DNA of 20,000 nucleotides from an uncultured virus (IMG/VR IMGVR_UViG_3300031760_000037) (lineage: Duplodnaviria > Heunggongvirae > Uroviricota > Caudoviricetes): IMG/VR virus record IMGVR_UViG_3300031760_000037, one strand, 5' to 3'. Of this stretch, positions 1 to 17,042 are shown one piece after another; position 1 is the first letter of the stretch; every line of letters starts with the position of its first letter. A model generated the notes under the pieces. It had not been told where the DNA came from. It worked only from the letters and a program-made list of their open reading frames with translations, and did not search any database. The position numbers and the translations under genes are program-made.

Positions 1-70
1 CAACCAATAGCCAATTGTTATTTGCAAGTGGATCAAAGTATTGTTCACTAATCGGTAGTCTCATCTTCAT
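1..70 (-). CDS. hypothetical protein, 5' part only (runs off window)
   Basis: ATG at 70 or 64 overlapping the stop of the 48-425 gene; MKMRLPISEQYFDPLANNNWLLV, open to the window edge. Confidence 0.5.
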   Translation of the reverse strand, partial: MKMRLPISEQYFDPLANNNWLLV

Positions 71-425
71 CATCTAACTCATATAAAATTTCATCTATCC
101 AATCTTCCACGTCACTGAAGTCACGTGGATAAATTGTTCAGTCTACATCATCAATATGATACCAATCATAATCTCAATCAACTTCACTCAATCTATTCTT
201 GAGTGTAAGTATTCACCAGTCTTGAAGTGTTTGTTTTATAAACTCTTCTATTCAGTCTGATGTCTCATAATAGTATGTATATGAGTCTAACTCATAATCA
301 TTGTCTGAGTTATAATCACATATATCTGACATTGCATCAGATATAATACTGTCTAAATCACAGTATGAATTTTTCAAAGCTGACTTATAGTCACGTAGCT
401 TTTCTATTAATTCTTGTTTATTCAT
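48..425 (-). CDS. highly acidic hypothetical protein, 125 aa
   Basis: ATG425..TAG48 with TGA=Gly; MNKQELIEKLRDYK...WIDEILYELDDEDETTD; about 37 D/E versus 9 K/R by manual count. Confidence 0.85.
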
Positions 426-702
426 CGTCTTCTGTAATACAATTTAAAACTCAATCACAATATAATTGTAATATGTATCTATTAAATGTGCTAATAATAA
501 GATTAGCATTATGTGGATCTGCATGTGCAAGTGCATGTCCTAAAGCATTCAAGAATGAACCTCAATATTTAATCCGTGCTTCTTGTATATCATAACGGCT
601 AAATCTAAGTTCATCTCTTTCTCATTCTTCATTCTCATATGAGAACACAGCTTCTTCTAATAAGTTAGAATAAGATAAATAACTATATAATTTTTCAATC
701 AT
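418..702 (-). CDS. conserved phage hypothetical protein, 94 aa
   Basis: ATG702..TAA418; contains KYGGSFLNALGHALAHADPHNANLII, resembling a common small phage protein motif (YGGSF...AD..N). Confidence 0.85.
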
Positions 703-749
703 ATTATTTTATGTTATCAAAATAAACCATAATCTTTAAAGGTCCTTTA

Positions 750-1253
750 TTACCCCTTGTTTGTTCATTCTGTTTCTTCCTTATGTAAAATAAAAGATTT
801 ATCAACAGGTATCTTCTTCATTACAACCTCTGTATAAAAGTCATAGTTATATGCCTTCCAGGTATAATCTGGATATTTGTAATCTTTGCTATAATCTCAT
901 TTATCATGTCTTTGTCTATTATAAGTTTCAAAACAATCAGTTGTAAATACAAAGTTTCAATATCTAAATTCAGAACATTCATCCCGATTTATACTTCCAC
1001 AATCTTTTAATTCATCTGAAAAATAATATTGCATTAGTTCAATAAAACTTTTTTTTGCTTTATTATAATCAGAATAAACTTCTGTAAAATTATTTCAGTC
1101 ATTCTCATCATATACTTGAACAGCATATATATATTCTATTCATTTCTTTTGTATCAAGTTATCTACATGTTTAACTATTTTATTTAGTTCATCATGTATT
1201 AATGTATCAGCATCACTGATAGGTTTTAATTCTGTATTATTATATTGTAACAT
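750..1253 (-). CDS. hypothetical protein, 167 aa
   Basis: ATG1253..TAA750, open when TGA=Gly; abuts upstream gene. Confidence 0.8.
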
Positions 1254-1254
1254 T

Positions 1255-1728
1255 TTATTCTAATCAATAAAAAGATAAAAGGTCATCGGCGAAACTACTA
1301 CCGAAGTCTCGTGAGTAATGCTCTCCTCACCAATATAAATGAAGTTCTGCTGTTCAATCTATTTCCCGAAATACACCTGGTCAACCTATTGTAATTGTCA
1401 ATTTATATATTGCATCATCTCTATCTAAGATTTCAGATGAGTCATACGGATCAACCTTCATTCGTTTCTCAATAGATAACAACTCATAGTAATTATCTAT
1501 TGCTTCGTTGATTCAGTCTCGATCTGTATTATATTCATCAACAACTTTACTTCAGTCTTCATATTCATTGTCTTCTTCATATACAACAAATTTTTCTACC
1601 TCATCTTCTCATAAAATTTCTTTAGCAATCTCAATACGTTCAACACTTTCTGGTGTCTCAGTATAATAATCATGCCATAATAATCGTGACTTTTTTTCAC
1701 GTTCAAAATACTCTTGTGTACTACTCAT
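1255..1728 (-). CDS. acidic conserved phage hypothetical protein, 157 aa
   Basis: ATG1728..TAA1255; C-terminal LTITIGGPGVF(W)EIDGTAELHLYWGG resembles the GGP..W...YWG phage family. Confidence 0.85.
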
Positions 1729-2062
1729 CTTTTTCTTTATTAAGATTTAAAACTTTGTTCTTAAAATGTTTATAAACAATTTCTAATCATAAAATGTAAT
1801 CGCGAACTTCTTCGTCGCTATCAAACATTATATCATCTTCAAGTTCATTAATCAAAACAATAGCTCATAATGTATCATCGTAATAGCTTAAGTATAAAGC
1901 TCATTCACCTTCTCAAGCATACGATACAAGTTCTTCAATATAAAAATCCATATTACCTTCAGTAGCCTTTTCAATAATATCAACAATTTTTGTTTGACTA
2001 ATTCTTGTCGGATAATGAAAGTCTTGATCGGTGATTACATTAAATAATTTTTCTTCGTTCAT
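1721..2062 (-). CDS. acidic hypothetical protein, 113 aa
   Basis: ATG2062..TAG1721, overlaps next gene start. Confidence 0.8.
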
Positions 2063-2081
2063 GTGAATATATAATAAAAAT

Positions 2082-2112
2082 AAAAAAGGCGAAACTAAAA
2101 TTGCCTCGCCTT
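2082..2112 (-). terminator. hairpin plus U-tract (terminator or leader attenuator)
   Basis: minus strand AAGGCGA-N13-TCGCCTT followed by TTTTATTTTT. Confidence 0.6.
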
Positions 2113-2114
2113 AT

Positions 2115-2144
2115 GGAAGTTTAAAATAAATATTTAATCAGGGG
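2115..2144 (-). promoter_or_regulatory. CCCCTG-box promoter-like motif, copy 1
   Basis: CCCCTG-N15-TAAACTTCC upstream of the ATG at 2062. Confidence 0.6.
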
Positions 2145-2151
2145 ATTTCTG

Positions 2152-2235
2152 TTACATAACTTCTTCTCTGATTAGTATGAACACTATTAATAATAGCATT
2201 CAGATAATTAATCTTATGAGTCGTTTGTTGCTCAT
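2152..2235 (-). CDS. small single-TM membrane peptide, 27 aa
   Basis: MSNK(W)LIRLIIGMLLLIVFILIREEVM; starts 3 nt after the previous stop. Confidence 0.55.
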
Positions 2236-2238
2236 CAA

Positions 2239-2784
2239 TTAATTTACAGTTGAATAAAATGCATTAGCAATACAGTTATAGTTTTTTAATAACCATACAT
2301 TAAATTTTCATTCTTGTTTAGAATGATTCAACTTCATAAATTTATCATACTGTTTATCTTCTTTAAGTCAATCAATAAACTGTTCATACAATGTATCTTC
2401 TATCTCTCGGTAGTTACCTTTATGTCAATTCCAGTGTAGAACTGGATCACTCCAGTCTCAATTATATTCCATGTATATTCCTGGAACTCATCTCCAGTTT
2501 GAGAATAGTTGAAGGACAAGTGTTGATAACCCTCAACTACTTAAGTCCATATCATAACAATAGTTACCATTAATCCATACCTCTATAACTTTGTTATGTC
2601 TATAAAGCATAATATTATAAATTCCAAATGAAGTAGTAACTTCTAAATCTATCTTCATTTCTCAAGATTGAAATTCGTCTGATTCAATCTTATCTAATAA
2701 CCATTGTGATACTTCAGGTACTGTATTAACATAATCTGTAGATATATCTACACGTCTTAAAAGTTCATAAGTAAATAGGTCCAT
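2239..2784 (-). CDS. conserved phage hypothetical protein, 181 aa
   Basis: ATG2784..TAA2239; WRGVPGIYMEYNGDWSDPVLHWNGHKGNY(W)EIED resembles a W.GVPGI...G.W.DP phage family. Confidence 0.85.
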
Positions 2785-2810
2785 GTTTAATAATTGTTTA
2801 AAATATAAAA

Positions 2811-3068
2811 TTAATATGAAGCTTCTTTTAATTCAAGCCTAAATTTCTCTAGTCTTTTTACAATCCTTAGATACATTCCTTCAAATAATTCTCGTCTAAG
2901 TTTTAATTGATCATCATATGAAAGCGTACCGCATTGTTCTTTAGCATACTCAAATCTTTCATCAAGTACTTTGAGTAACCCGCGGATACAATCGTCCGCA
3001 AGTTCTCATCAGTCTCAGTTATTTCATATAGCTATTTTTAAGAATTCTATTTCTTGTTCTTTAGTCAT
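2811..3068 (-). CDS. hypothetical protein, 85 aa
   Basis: ATG3068..TAA2811 with TGA=Gly. Confidence 0.8.
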
Positions 3069-3093
3069 GTCTATCAAAATAATTATATAAAAG

Positions 3094-3384
3094 TTATCAT
3101 TCATATGTAGGATAATCATCTACATATTTATCAAGTATTTCTGTAATATCAAAATATATTTCATCATCAAATTCTTCATATCATTCTCATCACCATTCCA
3201 TTTTAGATTTTGTATGATTCATATATTGTTTACAGCATCTCCATAAAGTTCATCAGTGGTCAAGCCACGATTTAACTTCTGTCGTTTCAATATAATCTTG
3301 TGCTTCGTATATAACAATTCTATATACTACAGATGATGCTGAATCTTGATGAGTTCAGCAATAAAATATTAAATCTTTTTGCAT
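3094..3384 (-). CDS. acidic hypothetical protein, 96 aa
   Basis: ATG3384..TAA3094 with TGA=Gly. Confidence 0.8.
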
Positions 3385-3385
3385 G

Positions 3386-3727
3386 TTATCAATTAAAGTT
3401 ATGAACTAAATCTTTTGCTTCTTCACTCTTGACATCATCAGCACTGATATCAAGTCAAGAACAAAAAGCATTTACATAAATACTATCTATTAATTTTTCT
3501 TTGTCGTCTTCATCATCCACATTATGATTTATTATATATCTAAATATCTCTCGGATGATTGAGTTAGTATAATCAGATGTTCTTATTTGTTTATCTTGAA
3601 GACTCTCAAAGAAATATGTTAGATCTAATTCAGAACAATCTACGTCTCGTTCTTCAATTAAATCATCTATATATTTTTGATCAAGTACAGGTATGATCAA
3701 GTCTCAATAAGTTATTATTCATTTCAT
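3386..3727 (-). CDS. acidic hypothetical protein, 113 aa
   Basis: extends track ORF 3455-3700 through TGA at both ends; ATG3727 overlaps the upstream TAA. Confidence 0.85.
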
Positions 3728-4047
3728 TATTTTCTGTATTTTAATTCAGTTAAAATCACCTCATCACTTTTTGGTGTTAATTGCAAATCTTTTTCTTCAA
3801 TATATTTTAATGTTGCAAATAAAAGTATTTCCATAAAAGATTTTGAATTTGCCGATTCTTTACACGCATCACGGAATGCTAACAACATTGTTATTCATTC
3901 GCGTGGGTTGTTTAAAATATTTGGTATTATTTTTTCTTCAAATATTTTTTGAACTTTTTCACTGTCAAATTCTTCTGTATCTCACAAGAACATGTTATAC
4001 ACTCCTGCAAGTTCTTCTGCTGTTTTTAACATTTTTTTACTAGTCAT
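3727..4047 (-). CDS. hypothetical protein, 106 aa
   Basis: ATG4047..TAA3727, TAATG coupling to the next gene. Confidence 0.8.
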
Positions 4048-4067
4048 GTTTATAATATAATTAAGAA

Positions 4068-4325
4068 TTAAATATGAGATTTAGGTTCTCGTTCCCGTTC
4101 TGGATCATCAGTTGATTTCTTTTGAAGTCAATCATAATCCAGATGCTGAGAATAAAAGTCAATAGTATACCATTCTGTTCATGCTGAATCACAATCATCA
4201 CATGTCCAATCATAGTATAAGTTATCTCATTCAACAGCTGACGCTGAATAAGTTAAGTTTTCACCTCAACATACAGGACATTCTCCTTGTAGGTCAAAGC
4301 TGTTTCTGTCTAATCTAATGCTCAT
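4068..4325 (-). CDS. zinc-ribbon protein, 85 aa
   Basis: GECPVCGGENLTY...YYDWTCDDCDSAGTEWY, two CxxC pairs; CPVC-TGA supports Gly. Confidence 0.85.
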
Positions 4326-4326
4326 C

Positions 4327-4557
4327 TTAAAGTGGTATAGAATTAAAAACTTTTTTTATTTCTTGTAATTTGTTTTCAAATGTGATATCATTCCGTCTAC
4401 TCTTTACAAGTCCTTCAACGATATCATCAAAAGTAATCTCTCCGTTTATAAACATATTCTTTACAAACTCTTCCATTTGTTCTGCTGTATATCCTTCATC
4501 ATACAGCTTTCTAAGTTCGTGTCTTATAAACACTTTCTTTTTTTCTTCTTGTTTCAT
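4327..4557 (-). CDS. hypothetical protein, 76 aa
   Basis: track ORF, ATG..TAA, fits the operon tiling. Confidence 0.8.
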   Translation of the reverse strand: MKQEEKKKVFIRHELRKLYDEGYTAEQMEEFVKNMFINGEITFDDIVEGLVKSRRNDITFENKLQEIKKVFNSIPL

Positions 4558-4575
4558 TTTGTATAATTTATAAAT

Positions 4576-4803
4576 CTAAAAGTTTTCATTAATAAATTTA
4601 GTTACTCGTTGCTTAGCATCTTCTAAAGATTCAAAGTCTTTTGGTGCTTCGCAATCTCCTTCTGGAAAATACAAGTTTGGATTATACACATACACTCTAT
4701 ACTCTCGTGTCTCTGGTTCATAATCCATAAGCATTGGTTCTATTGTAAACTTCCAATGTCTATACCATGCTGTATAATTTCATCATTCTTCTGTTCGTTC
4801 CAT
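4576..4803 (-). CDS. hypothetical protein, 75 aa
   Basis: ME(W)TEEGGNYTAWYRHWKFTIEP...FESLEDAKQ(W)VTKF; ATG4803..TAG4576. Confidence 0.85.
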
Positions 4804-4805
4804 GT

Positions 4806-5639
4806 TTATCATCTTAAAGATTTAAAAGTAATTTTATTCTTATCAAAATAAGAATGCACTCGTCAATAAACCTCATTAGGTGTATATCACCACGGTCCTT
4901 TTCTAGCACCGTCAACACCTAATCAAATTTCTTTTAAGTTAAGATTGAATGTCCAGTCTGAAGTCAATTCTGTTTCAACTCATCACGCTCATTCATATGG
5001 ACTAAATAAATATATAGCACTTCATTCTTTAACAGTCAATCTTCTAGCTTTCATAATCTCAATCATGTCGTGAAGGTTTCAATTATAATGTATGCATATT
5101 CATAATTGTCACCACGCTCAATCATATATCTCTCTCATATGAGTTGAACGTTCAGTCCGTCATTGAGATTTCTTAAGTGATCTAAAATATTTTAAAGGAT
5201 ATCTATGCCTATCATATATATCATCAGGTATCCACATTGTCTTTTCAGGATCAGTCAATAAATAAAAGTTATAAGTTATCCTATTAAAATGTTCTATGTT
5301 TGCATCAAACTTGTCGCAATCATACATTGCTTCTCGTAATGCTGAATGCAAATCTTCTTCGTCTTCAAGTTCAGGATGTTCATCTACGAATGGTTCAAAG
5401 AATGTTCTATAGAATTGGTCTTGCTCATACTGGTCATACCAATCTTTACAACATATGAAATCATATACGTATGATTCTGGATCAAGATAAGTTCATTCGT
5501 TGATTTGTTCTTCAACATAATCCAGTAACTTTCTTACTGTATCATCTTGAAAATAATCATCATAGTCTCGGTATAGAATAAGCTTATCCTGCTTCTCCAT
5601 TCGTTCTTTACAGATAGATTTTAATTCTTCTCGTTTCAT
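4806..5639 (-). CDS. conserved phage hypothetical protein, 277 aa
   Basis: ATG5639..TAA4806, includes track ORF 5160-5351; C-terminal LFSPYEGAGG...GYTPNEVYG. Confidence 0.85.
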
Positions 5640-5950
5640 TTTATTGCATTGTTATAATCTAAAACTAGGCGCTCAACGCCATGTGGTATTCATAGCATAC
5701 GGATTCACCACTCTTCCCGTATGTTTACGTCGGAAGTTTCTGTATCTCATTTAGTAAAATAAAGATATCCGTCAAACGTATCCCGACTAACGTCGTCTGG
5801 ATATTCAACTACCAATACTGATAAGTATGGATAGTCTTCTTCATCAAAGTAACGCTTGATGTAGCGTACCATTGGTCTGAAGTATTCTTCAGTCCAATCA
5901 AGCACTGTCTCAACCGTGTGCTTGTTCATTAAAATCTGTAGTGTCTTCAT
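5621..5950 (-). CDS. hypothetical protein, 109 aa
   Basis: track ORF 5747-5950 extended through TGA to TAA5621. Confidence 0.8.
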
Positions 5951-5992
5951 GTATAATACATTAAAATAAATAAAATGAATAATACACTTATT

Positions 5993-6023
5993 GGAAACTT
6001 AGTATGAAATAAATAACCAGGGG
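5993..6023 (-). promoter_or_regulatory. CCCCTG-box promoter-like motif, copy 2
   Basis: CCCCTG-N16-TAAGTTTCC upstream of the ATG at 5950. Confidence 0.65.
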
Positions 6024-6024
6024 G

Positions 6025-6099
6025 ACTAGGTATGAACGCCTGGTCTGTTCGGTCTTGTACTAGGTATGAACGCCTGGTCTGTTTAGTCTTGTACCAGGT
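6025..6099. repeat. 34-bp tandem repeat, about 2.2 copies
   Basis: ACTAGGTATGAACGCCTGGTCTGTTCGGTCTTGT (6025-6058), ACTAGGTATGAACGCCTGGTCTGTTTAGTCTTGT (6059-6092), ACCAGGT. Confidence 0.9.
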
Positions 6100-6113
6100 C
6101 GTATGTTTAGAAT

Positions 6114-6146
6114 AAAAAAAAGAGTATCACGTTTGTGATACTCTTT
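6114..6146 (-). terminator. intrinsic terminator
   Basis: perfect 12-bp stem AAAGAGTATCAC/GTGATACTCTTT with a 4-nt loop and T-run, just after the 6154 stop. Confidence 0.85.
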
Positions 6147-6153
6147 CAAAGGT

Positions 6154-7092
6154 TTATCTGTTTCTAATGTTAAACGTTGATGGGTTTATCTCATATCCAT
6201 AAATGTCTGAAAGACATACAACCATATTTGGTTCTCGTGCACCAGATGTCTCAGGTGAACTAGTTGCATAACGCATACCATTATCATTAGCTTCTTCACA
6301 GTGATGCCAATTAGATAAGCAACCTAACGTTTGTTTCTTTCATAAGTTCTTATTAACTAATGTTCTACCTATTGCATCTAAACTTGCTCATAGATTTGAA
6401 TATGATTGTCACCTTGGATTACTATCTGTGTTTCAAACATTTCAGATGTTCTTAACTCAAGCTCAGTTCTTTCCTCACGAAGTCTCAGCTATTGTTATGC
6501 ATCATATTACTCATTCAGTAATACCATAATGTTCTTCAACTTCTCGTATTACTTTAGGATCAAGTCAATAGTCTGACATTAATTCTTTAAATCTTTCGTG
6601 AGATGTAGTTCAAGTTAACTCTGGCATCTCTTGGTTTGAACCGTCTTCAGTTAGCTTTCCTGGATACCATTCAGTTTCAGGGAATGGTCAATCGTATTCG
6701 CATCAAGCTCAAGCAACTAAACCTATGAATCATTCTTTAGTTTGAATTCATAATTTTATATTCTCAAGTTCTTGTTCAATCAATGCATCGCATTGTGTCT
6801 TAGGTTCTTCTGTTTCTTTTCATAAAATATTATTGATGAAAATCTCAGTCGCTTCTTCATTTAATCTTATAGCTTCTGAGTTTAAATAAAAGTATTCCAT
6901 TTCACGTTCATAAATTTCTCAAGATAATACTTCTTGTCTTTCAGTAATATAGGCAAGCCTTGTAGATATCTCATCAAGCTTTTGTAAATCAAGTTGTCTA
7001 GTAATAGGTTTGTTAGTTAGTAATCATCAGATGATGTATCAAGCGATAGCTAATACGATAAGTGATAGAATAATTTTAATAGTTTGTTTCAT
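6154..7092 (-). CDS. membrane-anchored lysozyme-like (glucosaminidase/GH73-like) peptidoglycan hydrolase, 312 aa
   Basis: N-terminal TM (IKIILSLIVLAIAGYIIGGLL), coiled-coil linker, then HYGITEGVIGCITIAETSGGKNG..KNIGNVGN...RYATSS....A(W)EPN. Confidence 0.7.
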
Positions 7093-7138
7093 AGTTTATA
7101 AGTATAAATAATAAAAGATAGGGGAAGGGGGAAGACAA

Positions 7139-7468
7139 CTAATTGTTGTCTTCTTCATCCTCAAGCATAAAACAATCATTCCATTTTTCAAGGATAGATT
7201 GCATATCTGATTTGTTTCAGAACAAATCATCAAAGCTGATATTGAATGCTTCATATTCAGCTCTGTCTTTCTCATAGATTGCTTCACAGTTTACACGGAA
7301 GTCTTCTCTCATTAGTTCATTTGGTCTGTGATTATTTAAATAAGTCATCACTTGCCAATAGAACTTTCACTTTAATCACTCTCTGTAATTTATACGATAG
7401 CATTCTCTATCGTATTCATAGTCCTCCATATTAGGAACTATAACGTCTTCGTCGTAGATGGTTGGCAT
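7139..7468 (-). CDS. acidic hypothetical protein, 109 aa
   Basis: ATG7468..TAG7139 with TGA=Gly. Confidence 0.8.
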
Positions 7469-7478
7469 TTTGCTGTAA

Positions 7479-7685
7479 TTAATCACAAATAAAAAAGTCA
7501 CTTGTATCAAACAAGTCATAAAGTTCTGGATGTCTGTTAAGATTAGATAATATGTATTCTTCTAATCTAACAATCTTGCAATCCAATTCTCACAAGTCAT
7601 CAAGTGCTTGTCACTTCCTTTCTTTTAGAAGTTCTGCGTGTGCCTGGAAACTAAGTTCTAGGTCTTTGAAAAAGTTCTCTGACAT
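7479..7685 (-). CDS. hypothetical protein, 68 aa
   Basis: ATG7685..TAA7479 with TGA=Gly. Confidence 0.75.
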
Positions 7686-7717
7686 TTTAATTGTTGGTAA
7701 ATAAATATAAAATAACC

Positions 7718-7739
7718 GAAGCTACTATTCGGTAGCTTC
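7718..7739 (-). terminator. stem-loop over a stop codon (terminator or processing site)
   Basis: 8-bp stem GAAGCTAC/GTAGCTTC spanning TAG7725, weak U-tract. Confidence 0.45.
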
Positions 7740-8069
7740 AGTATTAGTCTTAATATAAAAACAATCCCGTCAATCTATGTCTCAAGTGATAACACACTCT
7801 GGTATATTATCTTTAATCCATAGCTTGGCTTCTCTTGTGCTATCAAAACACATTATAAAATCATTGTCAATGATGATAGCTTCGTGGCCTGGAAGTCTTC
7901 CAAAGATTTCACTATCTGGTATCTCTGGATGATTCTCAGATAAATCACAGAACGGTCAATATTCTGCTGGATCAGTATCTACCAATCAGAAGTAGGTTCT
8001 GTTGTTGTTTACGTAATTTGATTTGAACAGTTCTAAAATGTACTCTTTATTAAAAGCTTCTAGTTTCAT
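7725..8069 (-). CDS. hypothetical protein, 114 aa
   Basis: ATG8069..TAG7725 with TGA=Gly. Confidence 0.8.
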
Positions 8070-8097
8070 TTGTAGTGTTTTAAGATGATAATAAAAA

Positions 8098-8139
8098 GTC
8101 CGCTTATCGTTACGGGATAACCGATTATTTTCTACGGAC
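8098..8139 (-). ncRNA. putative structured 5'-leader RNA motif, copy A
   Basis: GUCCG-UAGAAAAAUAAUCGG-UUAUC-CCGUAAC-GAUAA-G-CGGAC then UUUUUAUUAU; homologous to 11558-11603. Confidence 0.6.
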
Positions 8140-8146
8140 ATTAAAC

Positions 8147-8177
8147 GGATGATTAAAAATTAAAAGCTATCCAGGGG
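8147..8177 (-). promoter_or_regulatory. CCCCTG-box promoter-like motif, copy 3
   Basis: CCCCTG-N16-TAATCATCC, directly downstream of a terminator. Confidence 0.65.
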
Positions 8178-8188
8178 ATAAGGTTCAT

Positions 8189-8221
8189 TAAAAAAAAGAG
8201 AATGATTATTACCATTCTCTT
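8189..8221 (-). terminator. intrinsic terminator
   Basis: 9-bp stem AAGAGAATG/CATTCTCTT plus a long T-run, overlapping TAA8209. Confidence 0.8.
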
Positions 8222-8436
8222 ATATAAGTATTGATAAGATAATCATATTCACATTGAGTGAATGGATTATCCTGTGCTCTGCATTTTATAATTGTAGAAT
8301 AGATTTCTCCAAATCATTCCTTTCTTTGATACACAACGTCATAATAATATATATCATTGTGTTCATAAAATCTAATCTTTATGTATCAACTATTACAGTT
8401 TCACATAAAAGATTTAATAAGTCTAGTGTTTTTCAA
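8209..8436 (-). CDS. hypothetical protein, about 65-75 aa
   Basis: TTG8436 or ATG8406 to TAA8209, open with TGA=Gly; lies between a promoter motif and a terminator. Confidence 0.65.
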
Positions 8437-8469
8437 AATAATATTATTAGATAATAAAAGTGTGAATAG

Positions 8470-9372
8470 CTAGAAACGCCATTCTCATTCTTCGGAAGAT
8501 GAAGAATTATTATCTATTCAGGGGGTAGCATTAAAGCTAGTCATTCAGTCTTCTCAATATAAAGGACATTGTTCTCTTAATGGACACCGTTTACAAGCAA
8601 GACATTTCTTTGGGTTGAACTCGTCGTTATCATATGCCTTTATATATTCAGTTAGTAAATGATAGATCAGTCTTTCACTGTCTTCATATTTATAATTCAA
8701 TTCTATTATCTGTAGCTGTGGTGTTTTTTGTTTGGTCCAAACGAAATAAGTAAAGTCAAAATCATCTCTCTTTTTCAGCTGTGGAAGGTTAGAAGTTATG
8801 CGTCGCATCCGTGGATAAAGTCTTCGTTGAAGTTTAAAATCAGGTTCATTCTTTCACCACTTTGACTTCGCTGTTTTACAGTCTCAGATAGTATAATCAC
8901 TGAACACTCGGTCTGCTGTTCAAGTTAAATATATCTCGTGATATGGTGGAAGGCTAACGTTGTTAGCACTTTGATCCGCGTCCATAAGTATACGCAAGGT
9001 CATACGTTTCTGTGTATATAATGGGTAATGAGTTTTATATTTAGAATCAGCTGGTAAGTCTTTCCATAGCTTTGCGAACTGGAAAAACATTTGGTATTCA
9101 GGATGTTCAGTTGAGTTTCATAATACACGTAGCACTTCATCTCATAATTTATCTCAGTATTGATAAGCTGTCATAAGTTGTTCAGCTATATCTCAGGTAT
9201 AAAAAGCATTACGTCAATTCTCTGATGGTTTAGATTTATCAAACTTATAACGGTAAGGACAAGTCATAAATCATTCCAATCCTGTTGGATGTAGCTCGTG
9301 TGTTGTTGGCGTTGCGGTTGTATTTATATTATGTGTACGCCAATCTATTGTAGGTATTATAATGTTATCCAT
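8470..9372 (-). CDS. Cas4-like / RecB-type PD-(D/E)xK exonuclease, 300 aa
   Basis: LHPTGLEGFMTCPYRY; LTGTAD(W)VFSDYTIGDCKT; LQ(W)RLY; C-terminal CLACK(W)CPLREQC, giving the split-Cys Fe-S pattern. Confidence 0.85.
8494..8524 (-). promoter_or_regulatory. CCCCTG-box promoter-like motif, copy 4 (inside the nuclease gene 3' end)
   Basis: CCCCTG-N16-TCATCTTCC upstream of the 8436 gene. Confidence 0.5.
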
Positions 9373-10507
9373 TTGAATTGTGATGGTTAGGTGATAAAGG
9401 TTTTATATTTTTTAGTGGTGTTCTATTAGTGATATTAAAGTCTTCAATCAGCTGTGCTTTAAATGTCCCGTCTGGTTGTTTGATATTAAGTGAACGTACG
9501 TGCTGATTAAATCTGATAGGTTCAGGTGTGGATGATGATATTGTTGTAGGTGTGGATGGTGCGCTGATAGGTGCACCATACTTAATTATATTTTTCAGTC
9601 TTTTAATTCCAGAACGGATTTGAATAGGTGAGAATTCATTATAATTATATTTCATAAAGTGTCTTATAAGATGCGTTTCTGAAACTCTATTAAAGTCTAT
9701 GTATTTATAGATGTCTCTATCTACCAGTGGAACTTTGATATCTTTCAAGTGGTAAGTTGGATGGTCTTTATCTATTGGTGGAATCTCAAGGAAGGTTATA
9801 TTATCTGATACTAGATTATGTATAACTGGTATTTCAGATAATGAATAGCTTGGTCAATAATCTTTAGTAAACTTTTGTGGTAAGTCTTTAAATCTATATG
9901 TCCAAAGTTTAGCTTCACAATCTAAAGGTCTATTAGTCCGATCAAGTTTAGTATATGAATTAGTATGTGGATAATAGTTAGCATAATTCTGTCGTGGGTT
10001 TTTACGTTTTATATCTACGATAAAGTTTATATTATCTACACTGTAATCAATGTCTCTAACTAATTCATTTGCTTCTGTGCAAGGAATTAAGAACGGACAA
10101 TTATCTAAGTATCTTCACTGCAATGTCCGTTGTTCATATGTAGGGAACGGGAATGGTAGTAATATAAAGTTAGTGGATGGTGAGATACATATTGTTTCTG
10201 CTGTAGGAAACAATAATGTCAGGTCCTTTAATGGTCGAAAATAATTTGAGTATTGTTTGTCAAATAGAATGGAATAATATTCAACTAGCAAGGATACTGT
10301 TTGCTTAGATTTTTTTTGTGGTCAAAACGAACTGGGTTTTGTGGTTGTATTTTGTTTGAAAAAATTTTTCAGTTTAGTTATGTTTGGAGTGGCATACATT
10401 TTTAGTCGCTCCATATTTTTTTTGTCTTGATAGAATTGATATGGTTTCATTAAGTGTTTCGTATTGATATAAAATAGGTGGGAACTGGATGTTGTTATCC
10501 ATAGCAT
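9365..10507 (-). CDS. hypothetical protein, 380 aa, Pro/Thr-rich
   Basis: joins track ORFs 10322-10507 and 9365-9748 in one frame through TGA codons; overlaps the nuclease start. Confidence 0.8.
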
Positions 10508-10645
10508 ATAGATATGTTTTCTAATTGCAAGCTAAAGTGTCTTGAGAAGTCTCGTGTAGGGGTTATTTCAGATGAGACCTGGCAAGTATATATGTATATT
10601 ATATATCTATATATATATTATAAGTATCGTAGAAATATTATTATT

Positions 10646-10673
10646 ATTATATATAGTAAATACGAAATGTCAA
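10646..10673 (-). promoter_or_regulatory. sigma70-type promoter
   Basis: exact TTGACA-N16-TATAAT pointing at the 10507 gene. Confidence 0.7.
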
Positions 10674-10719
10674 ATTTAAACATTTGTTTAAAACATAGGT
10701 GAGAACTGGTATATCTATG

Positions 10720-10856
10720 TTGACATATAGGAAGAGAGTATTACTTATCTTGACAATATATTAAAAAAAATTACTAATATATATGTAAAAATAGATAATA
10801 CTGTATATACGTATTGACATATAGATAATAAAAAGTACATAATGTATTGACATATA
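10720..10856 (+). repeat. four TTGACA(TATA) boxes in a very AT-rich non-coding block
   Basis: TTGACATATAG 10720, TTGACAATATA 10750, TTGACATATAG 10814, TTGACATATAT 10847. Confidence 0.7.
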
Positions 10857-10994
10857 TACAAACGTATGTAGCTCAATAAATTAATTATTATATTATACCT
10901 ATTTTTTATATATAGGTATATAAAATTGCATATGCTACGCCAGGTCCAATAAGGGAAATACCCTACACTAAAAATATCAAACATATTAATGACA

Positions 10995-11031
10995 AGGTAT
11001 GAACGTCCGTGTGTTAGGTCTCTTGTACCAG
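10995..11031. repeat. dispersed copy of the 6025-6099 repeat unit
   Basis: AGGTATGAACG-N15-TCTTGTACCAG versus AGGTATGAACG-N14-TCTTGTACCAG at 6062-6097. Confidence 0.75.
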
Positions 11032-11065
11032 TTTCCAAATGTCAAGTCCTAACAAGTTACATAGC

Positions 11066-11096
11066 AAAAGGGACACAAGTCAAGCTTGTGTCCCTT
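11066..11096 (-). terminator. intrinsic terminator
   Basis: perfect 12-bp stem AAGGGACACAAG/CTTGTGTCCCTT, 4 nt after TAG11101. Confidence 0.85.
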
Positions 11097-11100
11097 AGGT

Positions 11101-11232
11101 CTAACCTATGATGATGAACTCAGAACGGTCTAGGGTTCTAACCACTCATTTGTGGTTGATGAATTTCCATAGTCCGTCTCTGCACCTTGTGATGCGAATC
11201 AAGTTCCCGTCTTTTAACTTAGCGATATACAT
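11101..11232 (-). CDS. small basic hypothetical protein, 43 aa
   Basis: MYIAKLKDGNLIRITRCRDGLWKFINHKGVVRTLDRSEFIIIG followed by a terminator. Confidence 0.7.
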
Positions 11233-11292
11233 TTTGTTTGTGTAAATATAAAAGGTAAAATGTCAAGTGGATACGAAAAAAAGCTACACTCC

Positions 11293-11532
11293 CTAAGCGG
11301 GAATGTAGCTGTAGTTAACTTCCTTGATAAAATCGTGGAAGTAAACTGTACCGCTCTTATAATTGAAGATACGATACATTGGTCTTTTGTTCTGCCAAAC
11401 TGTATACTCTGTATACTTTTCAGCTTCCTTTACTTGAGATGCGTTTTTCTTCGCAAACTCTAAAGCCTTGATTGCTTGCTCCTTAGTCAAGACTTTCTTA
11501 GTAAAATTTCTAGTGTTTTGTGTAGTAGCCAT
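11293..11532 (-). CDS. basic hypothetical protein, 79 aa
   Basis: track ORF, ATG..TAG, preceded by the promoter motif and leader RNA. Confidence 0.8.
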   Translation of the reverse strand: MATTQNTRNFTKKVLTKEQAIKALEFAKKNASQVKEAEKYTEYTVWQNKRPMYRIFNYKSGTVYFHDFIKEVNYSYIPA

Positions 11533-11557
11533 TTTCGTAAAAAAACAGAATAATAAA

Positions 11558-11603
11558 AAGCCTGGCTATCCTACGGGACAAACCGATTTCTTTCACCAGG
11601 CTT
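11558..11603 (-). ncRNA. putative structured 5'-leader RNA motif, copy B
   Basis: AAGCCUGG-UGAAAGAAAUCGGU-UUGUC-CCGUAG-GAUAG-CCAGGCUU then UUUAUUAU. Confidence 0.6.
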
Positions 11604-11642
11604 GTGTGTGTAGTAGATTTGTGTGTAGAACCTACATTAAAT

Positions 11643-11673
11643 GGTAGCTTAAATCTTTCCGCATATCCAGGGG
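11643..11673 (-). promoter_or_regulatory. CCCCTG-box promoter-like motif, copy 5
   Basis: CCCCTG-N16-TAAGCTACC; shares CCCCTGGATA and CC(R)TTTAATGT with copy 3. Confidence 0.65.
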
Positions 11674-11674
11674 T

Positions 11675-11830
11675 TTATAAGCAAACTCATAGTGTATACT
11701 CAATGAGTACAAATATGAGAATACCTATAAAACAAGTTGATAGCATAAATACTGCTTGCTCGTCTGACTTGAACACTACCATTCAAGCACAGATTAAACA
11801 AGCAAGCACGAATAATAATAGTGTAACCAT
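11675..11830 (-). CDS. small two-TM membrane protein, 51 aa
   Basis: MVTLLLFVLACLICAGMVVFKSDEQAVFMLSTCFIGILIFVLIEYTLGVCL. Confidence 0.7.
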
Positions 11831-11864
11831 TCTTCATTCAATAGGATATAAAACTACACACTTC

Positions 11865-11895
11865 GGTTGCTTGAAAATTATTATTCATTCAGGGG
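11865..11895 (-). promoter_or_regulatory. CCCCTG-box promoter-like motif, copy 6
   Basis: CCCCTG-N16-CAAGCAACC upstream of the ATG at 11830. Confidence 0.55.
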
Positions 11896-12020
11896 TTCTT
11901 ACTAGTGGCTACTGGCTTGTACCTGTTGTTAAAAGCTACACACTTGTACCTGTCTTATACATTATGATCTTATTTATTACTATAGTCTGCTCCGCAGAAT
12001 ACAGCGTATATATAGAGTAT

Positions 12021-12149
12021 ATAAGACATAAGATATAAGACCATAAGACCCCCATAATAAATTAAAAAATACGAAGTATTGTTCCTCTCAAAATTTCGGG
12101 ATTTTCCCATTATGGCCAAAAAAAATTTCCGATTTTTCCTATTATGGCC
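12021..12149. repeat. short tandem ATAAGA(C/T) x4 and a 28-bp imperfect direct repeat x2
   Basis: ATAAGAC-ATAAGAT-ATAAGACC-ATAAGACC (12021-12050); AAAATTTCGGGATTTTCCCATTATGGCC (12090) and AAAATTTCCGATTTTTCCTATTATGGCC (12122). Confidence 0.8.
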
Positions 12150-12177
12150 TTCCATTCCCTGGCATGAGCCTGGCGAG

Positions 12178-12241
12178 TGATTTCACTTGCGTGAAATCAA
12201 TCAACTTTCTCTTGACACGCCAAACCATTTTGTTATATAAC
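12178..12241 (+). promoter_or_regulatory. sigma70-like promoter with upstream palindrome
   Basis: TGATTTCAC-TTGC-GTGAAATCA (12178-12199); TTGACA 12212-12217; TGTTATATAAC 12231-12241; ATG only a few nt later (near-leaderless). Confidence 0.55.
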
Positions 12242-12246
12242 ATCAT

Positions 12247-12783
12247 ATGAAAGAGTTCACGCGAATAGAAGATTTAACCGAGAGGATGATCGTCCGAGAG
12301 CGTAAAACATCAGTGCAATCAAAGACTGCCCATCCCAACAGATATACCAGTCCAGCGTACGCGCTGAAAAAAAGATTGGATGTTTTGTGAGCGCGTATTG
12401 GAAGGACAGTGTCTTCCGACACTGCCTCTCCATCCTTCCGATATGTAAACAATGCAGATGCATGGACTCTTATCGTAGCCGAGTATGACAGGGTATTAAC
12501 TGATGTGTATAATGTTATAATGTACATCATCACCCTGGACAGATATACCTCGACAGTCACGCATAACCGTGGATATTATTGCAGAAAGAAAAAGCAGCTA
12601 TACTGGAATCTCAAATCGGAGTATACTGCTAATCCTAAGCAACTGTATCCATTTCGGGATGTAGCACGGGATCGGTTCTTCACAAACACAAACTCCATAC
12701 CATCCACAAAGTGAAGAATCCCCTTAAATAATTATCTTTTTAATTACTTAATGAAATTGCAAGATGAGCAAAAAAGCAAGTAA
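12247..12783 (+). CDS. hypothetical protein, 178 aa
   Basis: ATG12247..TAA12783, extends track ORF 12409-12714 through TGA on both sides. Confidence 0.75.
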
Positions 12784-13390
12784 AGCAGCACCTTCTGTTC
12801 CAGAAACATCTGCTTCACATCAACCTTACATCACTCTTCCAGGATCAGCATTCTTCGATCAGGAATTAGGAGATGTAATTTATAACAAGCTAATGAAAGC
12901 TCCAGTGAAAGATTACCAAGTTCTTCTATGGCTATCTAAGCTAGGATCAACTGTGAATAATATCGCAAAAGAACTTGTTGTTGAAAGAGATAAAATCGCA
13001 GAAGAGGTTGGATTTGATAAATCAGTTCTTCAAGGAGCACTTACTCCAGAAATGCTAAACTCTGCTGAATATCAAGAAAAATCAAAGAAGTTCTGAGAAT
13101 TACTTCAAGAAAGAATCTTCAGTAAAACATTCTGTCTTGAACCACTTGGATGCTTACACCTTGATTTAACTAATCCTGACGGACATGCAAAGAGCTTTCT
13201 TGAATGAGCAAACCTATCTGCTGATGATTTGCTTAAGCTTTGAGAAGCTGGAATTCTAAGCATCACTGAGGATCCTGCAACTGAAATTTGAACTCCAGTT
13301 CCAGCCAAAGAAGAAGAAAAAAAAACAGAAGAGGTCAGCGAAGAAAAAACAGGCGAGGCTGACGATATTTTAGTTCCTAATGATAAATAG
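12764..13390 (+). CDS. hypothetical protein, 208 aa, acidic tail (weak resemblance to DUF1617-like phage proteins)
   Basis: track ORF 12764-13096 continues ...KKFGELLQERIF...GANLSADDLLKLGEAGIL... to TAG13390. Confidence 0.85.
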
Positions 13391-13392
13391 AT

Positions 13393-13728
13393 ATGAAGAC
13401 ATGATTACCTATTGTAGATAAATTCGATTATCCATTTAATGATATGATCAGATGAGTGGAGACATGGCAAGCATGAGAAAAGACAACTATATGTTTAGTT
13501 ACTCTTGATAACTGACATGAAGTTGTGTGATATGCTCATTGTATGAATGCAGACAACTATGACTTCGAAATCTGAAAAGAAGAAGCATATAAAAATGCCT
13601 GTGATAAAATCTGGGATATATATGCATTCTTGTATGCTGAAAATAATTGCGATGAAGATGATGATGAAGAAGACGACGACAGTCTTATTCATCACATTTG
13701 TTGCAAAGCTAAACACTGACACAAATAA
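13393..13728 (+). CDS. phage N4 gp49 / Sf6 gp66 family protein, 111 aa (possible Acb4-like nucleotide sponge)
   Basis: KTTICLVTLDNGHEVVGYAHCMNADNYDFEIGKEEAYKNACDKIWDIYAFLY matches the family pattern T.C.L.L.NG..V.G...C....N(F/Y)D.EIG...A..NA..KIW; three conserved Gly are TGA. Confidence 0.8.
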
Positions 13729-13758
13729 TTATTTATTATTTAACAACCTTATTTAACA

Positions 13759-14067
13759 ATGAAAGAACTATCAAAGAAAGATATTGTAAAATATCTTCGT
13801 GATGAGGAATTCGTCCTCACTAAAAAAGATGCAAACATGATTGTAGATGCAGTATTTGATTATGTAAAATCTACACTCCTAACTCATTTAAAATCAGGAG
13901 AAGATGTGAGATTATCTATAAAATGATTCGGATCATTCTTCACCTACACAAAGCCAGGACAGAAGAAGTATAATCCACATACACGTTCTTACCAGAACGC
14001 ACCTACAAGAAGAATTGTAAAATTTAAGAGATCTAAATTTTTATCTCATCCACAAGCTAAATACTAA
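13759..14067 (+). CDS. hup: HU/IHF-family DNA-binding protein, 102 aa
   Basis: LSKKDIV...LTKKDANMIVDAVFDYV...GEDVRLSIKGFGSF...YNPHT...RRIVKFKRSK. Confidence 0.9.
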
Positions 14068-17039
14068 TGGCACTAACACGAGCAGAATTAGAAGGAAATG
14101 CAGAAGAGCGTATGACTCATGAAGTTGACGAGAATGGAGAGTCACTTCCAGAAGAATGACAGTTCGACTCGAGAATAGAACGGGTTGTATCTATGAATTC
14201 TGCAAATCCAAAAGCTCAAGATGTGTCATCACCAGAAGCAAGAACCCAGAGATACGCAAAACGTTTTCCCTGGGTTCTAAAGAACTGGAAAAGAAAACAA
14301 GTGATGTATGACTGAGACCAGTCATTCATTAACGAAACTGTAGAACCATATTATGCTTCACGCTGGTATGAACAAAATAAAATCAACAAGAGAGATGTTA
14401 AAGAAATGTTCTTTGGTGATTTTGAGGTTTTTACTTTGTTCATGCAGGCAAGTCCTACTCCTAACTCCAATGCTCCCACTCTTCCTCAATGAAAGAATGT
14501 GACAACAGAGTTTGCAGAATTTCTATGACTGCTAACATCTCAACGTATCTTAAAAGAAAAAAACTTTAGAGTGTGGCAAACTATACTTCAAATCTACGAT
14601 CTCTATGAAATAGAGAATCCAGATCCAATACCAAACATCCATTTTTTTAAACATAAAACTAATTTAGAAAAAAGAAGGATTGCATCAAATAGACCTAAAA
14701 CTATTCATGATGTAATATCAAAACATCCAGTAGATACTTGAAGAATAACATCACCTGAAATACTTGAAGCAAAAGATGAAAAGCTAATTGAATTCTTAAA
14801 GAATAATGCACGTGACTTATATAAAATCTATGAAAAAGCTTCGGCTATTCCAGATGATGCACCTATGCACAAAAAGGATTTGAAGCTTGCATCCTACGAG
14901 AGAATCATAAAATTATTTAATGAAAGATTCTCAACTCCTGGTTCAAGACTGGATTGAGCTAACACTGACTATATTCCACCAGAGGAAGATGTCAATGCAC
15001 TGGATCGAGAAGATGCTCCACTTAGAGAAGCAGCAAACTATCCAGCAATATCATGAATGAGTATCACTGAAATTCAGGAACTCTGTGCAATGAAAGATTT
15101 TCTAGAATGAAGATTTAAGTTTAAACCACAGATATTAAAATGAAAAGTTATTCAAGAACCATATCAAAATGTGGAACTATCAACACAAGTTGTTACAGAT
15201 CCTAAATCTCCTAACTATAATAACCCTATTAAAATATTCTGACATCATACTTCATCAGTACGTTTTGCTATGTTCTGAGAAGAAAAATATTACAAGCGTA
15301 TTAGACCTTGACAGACATTGCAACCATGGCAATGGATAGCAAAGCTATACAAAGGTTGGGTTACAACTGTAGTTGCTCCACGTAGATGATGAAAATCTTA
15401 CCGAGCGATTGACGAAGCTGTCGAAATGTTTACATCTGACACACAGGAAAGAAGTCGTCCAATCCGTGTATTGTTTGTCTGAATCAACACGAAGAAGCTA
15501 AAGACAGTTATCAAGTACCTTCTCTCATTTACAAAGCAATTCACTGCTGCATGATATTTCGATCGGGAAGCATCTAAGAATATAATGCACTATCGTAAAA
15601 AAGAATCAAATAAGAAAGCTACCGAAGCTGATGACCTTTGAACTATCGAATTCATCTGATCAAAAGATGAAGATGCATGAGTCTGAGATTATGCTGACCT
15701 CATCATCATAGATGAGTGTGAAAGAATTGATGAGAATGTGTGGGAAGATATCATGCCTATCATCACTAACGAATGAGCAAGATGTATTCTAATATCAACA
15801 CTAAATAAGAATTCTCAAAAGACATGGTTCTATCAACAACTTGTGCAAGGTGAGACTGAGGAATTACAGCGCAATCTTACAAACCAAGATGTAGTAACAG
15901 TAATCTATGAGAAGTGGAACAAACGGGTTCAGCCTGTAATTGACAAAGTAGAAGCTATTGAAAAAGAGACAGGTAAATCTGTACCGTTTGATGAATGGAT
16001 TAACTGGATAGATATTGATGCAATGAGTTCTGATATGAGATATGCAAGGCAGTGGGTATGATTAAGATTCACTGGTGAAGATACTGATCTGAAAACAGAG
16101 CAGGAGAAAGCCTATGCAAGAGATAGGTTAAGATGAACTAAAGCATATTATCCAGAATGGCGGGCTATCTTTCCAGAAGATACAGGAGTTTATGATTATG
16201 AGAGTTCAATAAAAGACAAGAACTATTTTGAATGAAAGCAATATAACTATGTAGTCCTAGCTTATGATCCTGCTGAAAGTAAAGATAAGGCAGCATTGGT
16301 GTATATGTGATATGATGACATCGCAAGGAAGATTGAAGTCTTCCACACAGAAAAACTACCTAACAACTATACTTATCATGGACCATTCATCCAAAGAGCA
16401 TTACAGGATTTACAACATAGAGTAGATCGTTCTACTCTTGCTGAATGAGTTTGAGCTGAACAAAGAGTATTCTTTGCATACGACTTTAACTGAGTTGGAC
16501 AATGACTAGAACCATTCTTCCAAGAATGTAAAGTGAGAATAGATTTGAAAGTGAGATTCACTGGACAGTGAGCAATAACTAAGAAATGAATAAACCACAA
16601 TGTTCCAAAAGAGTTATTGGTTAATATGCTTCAGAACACAATGGATCATGGAGCATTGGTTATCAATCAAGAATGTCTAGAGTTCATCGAAGAACTTGAC
16701 CACTACAAATCTTATTATAATCCTGACACATGAAATACAAAGTACCAAGCAGAAGCAGGAGCTAGTGATGACTTCGTATCTGCTGCAATGATAGGTACTT
16801 ACTTTATCCTTGAATATATGTGAGAAAAATATAATATAACAAAAAACGAGATAGAGCAGGCTATTGATCCAGAAATGATAACTCCATCTGTAGCTAATAT
16901 GTTCGATGAAGTAGAAAGAATTGTTATGCAAGGAGTTAACAATTGAAAAACTGTTCAACAAGTTATTGATGAATATAATGGTCGCTCCCAACGAAACAAT
17001 TTGAAAAGGAAAGATGTTTTATCTCAATTCTGATATTAA
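14067..17039 (+). CDS. terL: terminase large subunit with long N-terminal extension, 990 aa
   Basis: LQPWQ Q-motif, Walker A VAPRRGGKSY, Walker B DLIIIDECE, coupling motif LISTLN, RNase H-like nuclease VLAYDPAESKD, YDFNGVGQG, DDFVSA; no TAA/TAG in frame. Confidence 0.93.
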
Positions 17040-17042
17040 CGA

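Follow-up and report, generated by a model that had tools for sequence, protein, structure and literature searches.

The window analysed here, a 20,000-nucleotide stretch of DNA from an uncultured virus of the Caudoviricetes (IMG/VR record IMGVR_UViG_3300031760_000037), comes from a phage in which CGA and CGG are very probably read as tryptophan. When the codons of two of its genes, encoding a terminase-large-subunit-like protein and a PD-(D/E)XK nuclease, are set against the residues of homologous proteins, CGA and CGG both behave as Trp codons, CGT, CGC, AGA and AGG behave as Arg codons, and TGA behaves as a Gly codon. By the same comparison TGG appears still to be Trp, and Arg would be written solely as AGA, CGT, AGG and CGC. 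With a high degree of confidence, the genes can be described as written in a code in which UGA is Gly, CGA and CGG are Trp, UGG is kept as Trp, and decoding would rely on transfer RNAs (tRNAs) of the host. The first-pass annotation, made from the letters and a list of open reading frames (ORFs), had proposed such a second layer of recoding on top of UGA=Gly from a few codons that fall where Trp is expected, giving three reassigned codons in all, and the alignments bear this out for each of the three.

The homolog sets comprised 33 sequences for the terminase-like protein, scored over its residues 400-990 (a 34th match, the window's own protein, was left out), and 49 for the nuclease, and alignment columns were sorted by the codon that the window uses. 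Public translations read TGA as Trp, so that W in a homolog stands for TGG or TGA, G for GGN, and R for any of the six Arg codons; the window's own public terminase entry differs from its reading with table 25 (TGA as Gly) at exactly the 35 TGA codons. Of the 13 CGA/CGG columns, 12 hold W in two homologs or more, compared with 1 of the 60 columns in which the window has CGT, CGC, AGA or AGG (Fisher p = 9e-12; Table 1). K occurred in at least two homologs in 1 of the 13 CGA/CGG columns and in none of the 19 TGG columns, compared with 26 of the 60 columns of the other Arg codons.

Table 1. Residues of homologs in alignment columns of the terminase-like protein and the nuclease, sorted by the codon of the window. 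W, K and G give the number of columns in which that residue occurs in at least two homologs; the last column gives shares of alignment cells
Window codon	Columns	W	K	G	Main residues
CGA	7	6	1	0	R 60%, W 31%, K 1%
CGG	6	6	0	0	R 56%, W 32%
TGG	19	19	0	0	W 58%, R 29%
CGT	18	0	6	0	R 71%, K 8%
CGC	4	1	1	0	R 73%, K 11%
AGA	33	0	18	0	R 67%, K 16%
AGG	5	0	1	0	R 73%, N 13%
TGA	48	45	4	39	W 52%, G 25%
GGN	18	17	3	16	G 43%, W 39%

The exchange between R and W is also as frequent as an exchange between synonymous codons. Homologs have W in 31-32% of the cells at CGA/CGG and R in 29% of those at TGG, and the synonymous exchanges from TGA to G (GGN) and from GGN to W (TGA) occur in 25% and 39% of cells, respectively. 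The commonest real replacements are rarer (AGA to K, 16%; TAY to F, 11%), R/W exchange being two to three times as frequent. The codon used by the window thus predicts the type of column, and 'R' columns are of two kinds, those with CGA or CGG resembling the TGG columns and the rest resembling columns of Arg. We considered, and rejected, the possibility that W in the CGA/CGG columns comes from TGA translated as Trp, because nearly all TGA columns also hold G, which CGA/CGG columns never do: two homologs or more have G in 39 of the 48 TGA columns, compared with 0 of 13 for CGA/CGG and 0 of 19 for TGG.

The pattern recurs in each protein for which diverged homologs were aligned. In the terminase-like protein W occurs in at least two of the 33 homologs at seven of the eight CGA/CGG columns, both W and R occur at all 14 TGG columns, and in the two most distant homologs none of the 11 cells aligned to CGA/CGG columns is R. 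In the nuclease all five CGA/CGG columns hold R and W plus some L or F, and no K; the CGG at 8587, one of the codons on which the first-pass annotation had relied, is R30 W17 F1 among the 49 homologs, and even copies at least 90% identical to that of the window differ by R/W at 5 of the 10 CGA/CGG/TGG sites. The match to the Pfam family PDDEXK_1 rises from 40.3 bits with CGA/CGG translated as Arg to 42.9 bits with these codons translated as Trp (cut-off 22). A third protein, of an ORF at 1255-1728 with nine homologs, shows R/W(/F) at CGG and W/R at TGG: aa121 (CGG 1366, also relied on in the first-pass annotation) is R3 W1 F4 with one gap, aa15 is R8 W1, aa70 is R7 L2, and aa133, where the window has TGG, is W4 R4.

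The close homologs of the nuclease all come from TGA-recoded genomes, and we therefore searched with a nuclease profile for relatives that use the standard code. Among 1.84 billion representative proteins there were 115 matches, of which 113 were new and were aligned to the profile. A TGA=Gly genome translated with table 4 yields proteins low in Gly and rich in Trp, and on this basis the distant set was split, by what is a rough proxy, into standard-code-like sequences (at least 3.5% Gly, n=34) and TGA-recoded-like sequences (less than 2.5% Gly, n=63). In the standard-like set column 262, which corresponds to the CGG of the Cys motif at 8587, is W10 Y6 G3 F2 M2 R1 C1 of 26, and the columns of two others are A7 W6 Y6 and others (column 188) and L11 Y8 and others (column 190). 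Summed over the five CGA/CGG columns, the log-odds scores in this set are +5.5 bits for W, -0.5 for R and -9.0 for K. The control columns behave as expected of their codons, with W the best residue at the three TGG columns (+5.7 bits) and R the best at ten columns of other Arg codons (R +10.2, W -2.6 bits). Column 172, where the window has TGG, is W21 R4 of 33 in the standard-like set and R26 W25 in the 63 Gly-poor representatives, which share less than 50% identity with one another. The R/W signature thus appears to span many diverged nucleases of TGA=Gly phages and to be rare outside them, which suggests that TGA=Gly phages in general, beyond the present lineage, commonly use CGA/CGG for Trp. 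The 'CxWCP family' motif that the first-pass annotation named for the nuclease fares less well: the aligned position is aromatic in the distant relatives, with W the commonest residue, and nothing further in that claim found support.

Several observations weigh against a Trp meaning, and are given here together with the alternatives on which they bear. One alternative is that CGA and CGG are ordinary Arg codons, and that the R/W alternation reflects real replacements, for example where CGG often mutates to TGG at sites that tolerate either residue. A single transition suffices for that change, some of the codons lie in contexts that look natural for Arg (e.g. PE[R]E[R]EPK and KSR[R]ND), and some CGA columns have R where W would be expected: terminase aa976 (CGA) is R26 Q3 E2 N1, with no W, and aa89 and aa140 of ORF 1255-1728 are invariant R in the nine homologs. 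Homologs less than 90% identical cover 18 of the 49 CGA/CGG codons of the window, and 33 of the 49 are covered by some homolog; at the 13 sites covered solely by relatives at least 90% identical R is invariant, which fits either reading. However, Arg codons that specify the same residue should behave alike, whereas one class alone, CGA/CGG, shows the alternation, CGA doing so as CGG does although it lies two changes away from TGG. K, the usual replacement for Arg, is almost missing from the CGA/CGG columns, the R/W exchange proceeds at the frequency of the synonymous TGA/GGN exchange, and the distant standard-like relatives are aromatic, with R in just 1 of 26 sequences at column 262. A plain Arg meaning was rejected because the pattern is confined to one codon class, and we regard it as very improbable.

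Alternatively, decoding might be ambiguous or mixed, part Trp and part Arg, or just one of the two codons might be fully reassigned. In their prediction of Arg-codon reassignments in bacteria, Shulgina and Eddy state that only experiments exclude ambiguous decoding, and in their survey the Gracilibacteria differ among themselves, CGG being Trp in some and Arg in others (Shulgina & Eddy 2021, eLife 10:e71402, PMC8629427). The few CGA columns that hold no W would also fit mixed decoding. Against this, the two codons behave alike (six of seven and six of six columns) and together make up 42% of the Trp-type codons of the window, although a comparative method is blind to a minor Arg fraction; moreover, they are used at conserved positions of the Cys motif of the nuclease and just past the Walker A motif of the terminase-like protein, where ambiguity would be costly. 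We consider mixed decoding very unlikely.

A third alternative is that CGA and CGG specify another aromatic residue, Tyr or Phe, instead of Trp. In the standard-like nuclease relatives the summed log-odds over the five CGA/CGG columns is higher for Tyr than for Trp (+9.3 vs +5.5 bits), and Phe is the main alternative residue at aa121 of ORF 1255-1728. By itself this outgroup evidence would indicate an aromatic residue, not Arg, with Trp not singled out. What favours Trp over Tyr is the exchange within the clade, in which W is the partner of CGA/CGG (31-32% of cells), Y and F being rare there (2-3% and about 1%); conversely, R is rare in the TAY and TTY columns of the window (2% of cells each), compared with 29% in its TGG columns. 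The published code of the presumed host likewise gives Trp (PMC8629427; PMC13092985). A Tyr or Phe meaning was rejected on the strength of the within-clade exchange partner, which is W, and appears extremely improbable.

Some further points on the same side concern the Trp assignment itself. With CGA/CGG counted as Trp, Trp makes up a high share of the residues, 2.05% for the ORFs as a whole and 2.39% for the genes on the minus strand. No tRNA genes and no Rfam families were found in the 20,000-nucleotide window, so that a tRNA that would read these codons as Trp is missing from it. It was residues of the homologs that were compared, and the R letters of relatives in W columns would have to be their own CGA/CGG codons; searches of viral, metagenome and genome contig collections, and of GenBank phages by tblastn, yielded no related DNA. 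Finally, bacterial Arg-codon reassignments are described as being without experimental verification (PMC13695967).

All five codons quoted in the first-pass annotation are in frame and on the minus strand, in genes of a block at 48-10507 (Table 2). It had also noted that the Walker A arginines of the terminase-like protein use other codons, and codons 439 and 440 are indeed CGT and AGA; they are followed by TGA TGA AAA TCT (G G K S), then TAC, and then CGA. Across 27 ORFs with 5701 codons there are 29 CGA, 20 CGG, 68 TGG and 241 TGA codons, and 136 AGA, 40 CGT, 12 AGG and 9 CGC codons, so that CGA/CGG account for 49 of 117 presumed Trp codons (42%). Two of these CGG codons, at 8121-8123 and 8100-8102, lie upstream of the start of the public gene call and may be non-coding. 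The share of CGA/CGG among Trp-type codons is higher in minus-strand genes (40/79) than in the plus-strand genes for packaging and structure (9/38; Fisher p = 0.009), whereas TGA makes up an equal part of the Gly codons in the two blocks (0.72 and 0.74). The strand difference, which comes from a small sample in this window only, may reflect expression level or timing, the minus-strand genes presumably being early genes.

The same three codons with the same meanings are known from bacteria. In Absconditabacteria, CGA and CGG are predicted by Codetta to be Trp on top of UGA=Gly, genes for tRNA-UCG and tRNA-CCG fit the prediction, and a tRNA-Arg(GCG) serves CGU/CGC; CGG=Trp may reach some Gracilibacteria (Shulgina & Eddy 2021, PMC8629427). 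The code of Absconditabacterales is restated in PMC13092985. The window resembles these genomes further in its low GC content (the share of guanine and cytosine), in AGA as the main Arg codon, and in CGT/CGC as Arg, but the carrier there is a bacterium and here a phage, and the bacterial prediction is backed by tRNA genes, of which the window has none. Usage also differs. In all but one species of Absconditabacteria the reassigned codons are little used, there being fewer than 7 CGG and fewer than 37 CGA in every 10,000 aligned codons, and the exceptional species has 30 CGA, 24 CGG and 35 UGG (PMC8629427); the window has 51 CGA, 35 CGG and 119 TGG per 10,000 ORF codons, the denominators being different and the comparison therefore a rough one.

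Phages with related codes have been described. Phages and prophages that use code 25 in Absconditabacteria and Gracilibacteria share, like the window, dense in-frame TGA and the UGA=Gly code of the host (Liu et al. 2023, mBio, PMC10746230). In that study codes were judged by coding density under table 25 versus table 11, and CGG, CGA and arginine never occur in its main text; the sense-codon layer is the addition made here. The phage report of Shulgina and Eddy is limited to the case of AGG=Met (PMC8629427). Those phage assemblies, two in number and with no stop-codon change, come from the same samples as AGG-reassigned Bacilli and, as proposed here, follow an Arg-codon reassignment of the host without carrying the matching tRNA, although the codon, the amino acid and the host phylum differ. 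Stop-codon-recoded phages (TAG=Gln, TGA=Trp) are likewise mistranslated by standard tables, but they depart from hosts with the standard code and at stop codons only, whereas the phage of the window appears to match its presumed host, including at a sense codon (Borges et al., bioRxiv 10.1101/2021.08.26.457843). No paper on a phage with CGA/CGG as Trp was found in full-text literature searches, from whose coverage most subscription journals are absent. The code is thus already known for the presumed host clade; a phage lineage that uses it, here for 42% of the Trp codons, is to our knowledge unreported.

In the mechanism that we propose, CGA and CGG would be decoded by host tRNAs with UCG and CCG anticodons and Trp identity, as in Absconditabacteria, and UGA by a host tRNA-Gly(UCA). 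A phage that relies on host tRNAs needs a host with the same code, and the host would most likely be a bacterium of the Absconditabacterales (SR1) living in the ruminant gut. The first-pass annotation had narrowed the host to a subclade of the Absconditabacterales; the precedent for CGA/CGG as Trp is real, but the prediction is made for the entire clade of Absconditabacteria and singles out no subclade (PMC8629427), so the code would point to Absconditabacterales and not to a narrower group. At 0.28-0.37, the GC content across the window falls among the low values of 0.26-0.38 given for the reassigned clades (PMC8629427). Part of the region 8000-17999 is listed in 24 public runs from 15 studies, mostly of bovine, sheep and goat gut metagenomes, and one run, with a word share of 0.99, may be where this DNA came from. 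Contigs of four runs from four other studies align to the window with a few percent of letters differing. As the contigs occur in runs of several studies, relatives of the phage are present in ruminant gut samples.

These results bear on how such genomes are annotated. The claim of the first-pass annotation that no standard table covers this code agrees with tables 1-6, 9-16 and 21-33, and its warning that even table-25 annotations mistranslate the proteins also holds. In public translations of proteins from the phage clade TGA appears as Trp and CGA/CGG appear as Arg, and a reading with table 11, table 4 or table 25 places Arg at about four in ten tryptophans (approximately 42% in the window), which distorts homology searches, structure prediction and the peptide databases used for rumen metaproteomics. 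A rare bacterial sense-codon reassignment also gains independent support from the synonymous-like R/W turnover in a phage clade. The code narrows the host to bacteria in which UGA is Gly and CGA/CGG are Trp. In a cell with the standard code, or with code 25 but CGA still decoded as Arg, the phage should fail to produce functional proteins, which bears on code changes as barriers to viruses and gene transfer.

More tentatively, and with the balance of probability somewhat against it, we put forward the idea that a widespread ruminant-gut phage lineage of ~75 kb, together with many TGA=Gly phages, has fully adopted the Arg-to-Trp reassignment, writing ~40-50% of Trp as CGA/CGG, above nearly all host genomes, and more so in early genes (40/79 vs 9/38). 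The basis for such wide adoption is the same R/W signature in the 63 diverged nuclease representatives. If true, dependence on a reassigned sense codon at such a scale would have been shown for a virus group for the first time, the code would act as a host-range lock, and experimental proof of the bacterial reassignment would be most easily obtained through these phages.

Table 2. Features of the window. Positions are those of the whole window; for single codons the residue in square brackets is the one given by the CGA or CGG codon when translated as Arg
Feature	Position	Strand	Remarks
ORF, 157 amino acids (aa), function not assigned	1255-1728	-	5 CGA/CGG: 1684-1686, 1519-1521, 1462-1464, 1366-1368, 1309-1311
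CGG codon	1366-1368	-	GGPGVF[R]EIDG
ORF, 181 aa	2239-2784	-	one CGA, 2407-2409
CGA codon	2407-2409	-	GNY[R]EIED
ORF, 85 aa, zinc-ribbon-like	4068-4325	-	CGG 4095-4097, CGA 4089-4091
ORF, 78 aa (public start 4803)	4576-4812	-	3 CGA, including 4606-4608
CGA codon	4606-4608	-	SLEDAKQ[R]VTKF
ORF, 277 aa	4806-5639	-	6 CGA/CGG
ORF, 312 aa, N-terminal hydrophobic segment	6154-7092	-	22 TGA, 2 CGA (6544-6546, 6235-6237)
CGA codon	6235-6237	-	MRYATSSPETSGA[R]EPN
PD-(D/E)XK nuclease, 300 aa, Cas4/AddB-like	8470-9372	-	Pfam PDDEXK_1; CGA/CGG: 8908-8910, 8824-8826, 8809-8811, 8803-8805, 8587-8589
CGG codon	8587-8589	-	LACK[R]CPLREQCP
ORF, 380 aa (public start 10450), TGA-poor	9365-10507	-	5 CGA/CGG
Terminase-large-subunit-like protein, 990 aa	14067-17039	+	phrog_7579 terminase large subunit, E = 3.3e-10; 8 CGA/CGG: 14079, 14181, 15006, 15402, 15564, 15924, 16161, 16992; 14 TGG
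Large Gly-rich protein, >986 aa, open at window end	17043-20000	+	73 TGA, 1 CGG (17250-17252), 12 TGG

In the nuclease, Asp154 is invariant among 50 sequences and Asp164, Cys165, Lys166, Gln182, Tyr186, Cys38, Cys260, Cys263 and Cys269 are at least 90% conserved; its four conserved cysteines comprise one in the N-terminal and three in the C-terminal part. Four such cysteines would be expected to bind an iron-sulfur cluster. Sequence searches of the PDB, with the single sequence or with a profile, returned no usable relatives of the nuclease.

The other minus-strand ORFs were reached mainly through close relatives. A look-up of 90%-identity clusters with 20 ORF readings found 13, and ten further ORFs were reached only by members at least 90% identical, in which R is invariant at every CGA/CGG site but the CGA at 4089. 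At 2407 (CGA) R is present in four of four relatives, all at least 90% identical, and the 78-aa ORF at 4576 has R at its three CGA sites in all seven cluster members, which are similarly close. The zinc-ribbon-like ORF, for which the Pfam zinc-ribbon matches are weak and all below cut-off, has W in one and R in three of four close relatives at CGA 4089, and R in all four at CGG 4095. ORF 9365-10507 is a called gene, and its four covered sites are all R in two close relatives. The ORFs at 4806-5639 and 6154-7092 each form a 90% cluster consisting of the sequence itself alone. For the latter, the 'muramidase' label given in the first-pass annotation was not upheld, there being no match in Pfam (E<=0.1) or PHROGs (E<=0.001) and no relevant PDB sequence match (E<=10). 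At position 1684, in the ORF at 1255-1728, a T>C difference turns CGA into CGG; it is the sole difference at a CGA/CGG codon among the 40 strain differences listed out of 2347.

Read with table 25 the window has 41 ORFs of at least 80 aa, compared with 12 under table 11. The table-25 ORFs tile the window in two blocks, the minus-strand block already mentioned and a plus-strand block from 12764 to the window end. The contig that carries the window is 74,586 bases long, and those of the homologs are 70-78 kb. Besides the terminase-like gene, the window encodes an N4-gp49/Sf6-gp66 family protein (Phage_gp49_66; 59.6 bits, Pfam), an HU-like DNA-binding protein (54.5 bits) and many small acidic ORFs without any family match. 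No portal or capsid gene was identified within the window. The terminase hallmark, Phage_gp49_66 and a consistent genome size indicate that the window is part of a tailed phage genome.

The divergent gene blocks are separated by a 2.2-kb stretch (10507-12764) that is mostly non-coding, from ~10.5 to 12.7 kb, and in which no Rfam families were found. Its minus strand carries a promoter with a perfect TTGACA-16-TATAAT match (10673-10646). The stretch also contains a GTATTGACATATAG-type repeat in three or four copies (10709-10861), and a terminator with a 12-bp stem (11310-11282) lies at the end of a TGA-free 79-aa ORF on the minus strand (11293-11532). All 12 between-strain insertions and deletions among those listed sit in 11028-12424. 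Contigs of other runs join or break at 4560-4600, 10875 and 13300-13760; one run skips 13380-13759, which removes the gp49-like gene, and several have loose ends near 13300-13345. These points suggest differences in gene content among related phages, with the caveat that metagenome joints at 80% likeness are often artefacts.

The terminase-like protein is unusually long, with its Walker A region at aa 438-444 and no family match for its first ~400 residues. Its homologs are 663-992 aa long, the shorter and more distant ones being without much of the N-terminal part, and one distant homolog carries PF17289. The large Gly-rich protein downstream gave no Pfam or PHROGs family match; TGA makes up ~7% of its codons, and its gene adjoins the terminase-like gene, in the spot expected for a portal or large structural protein.

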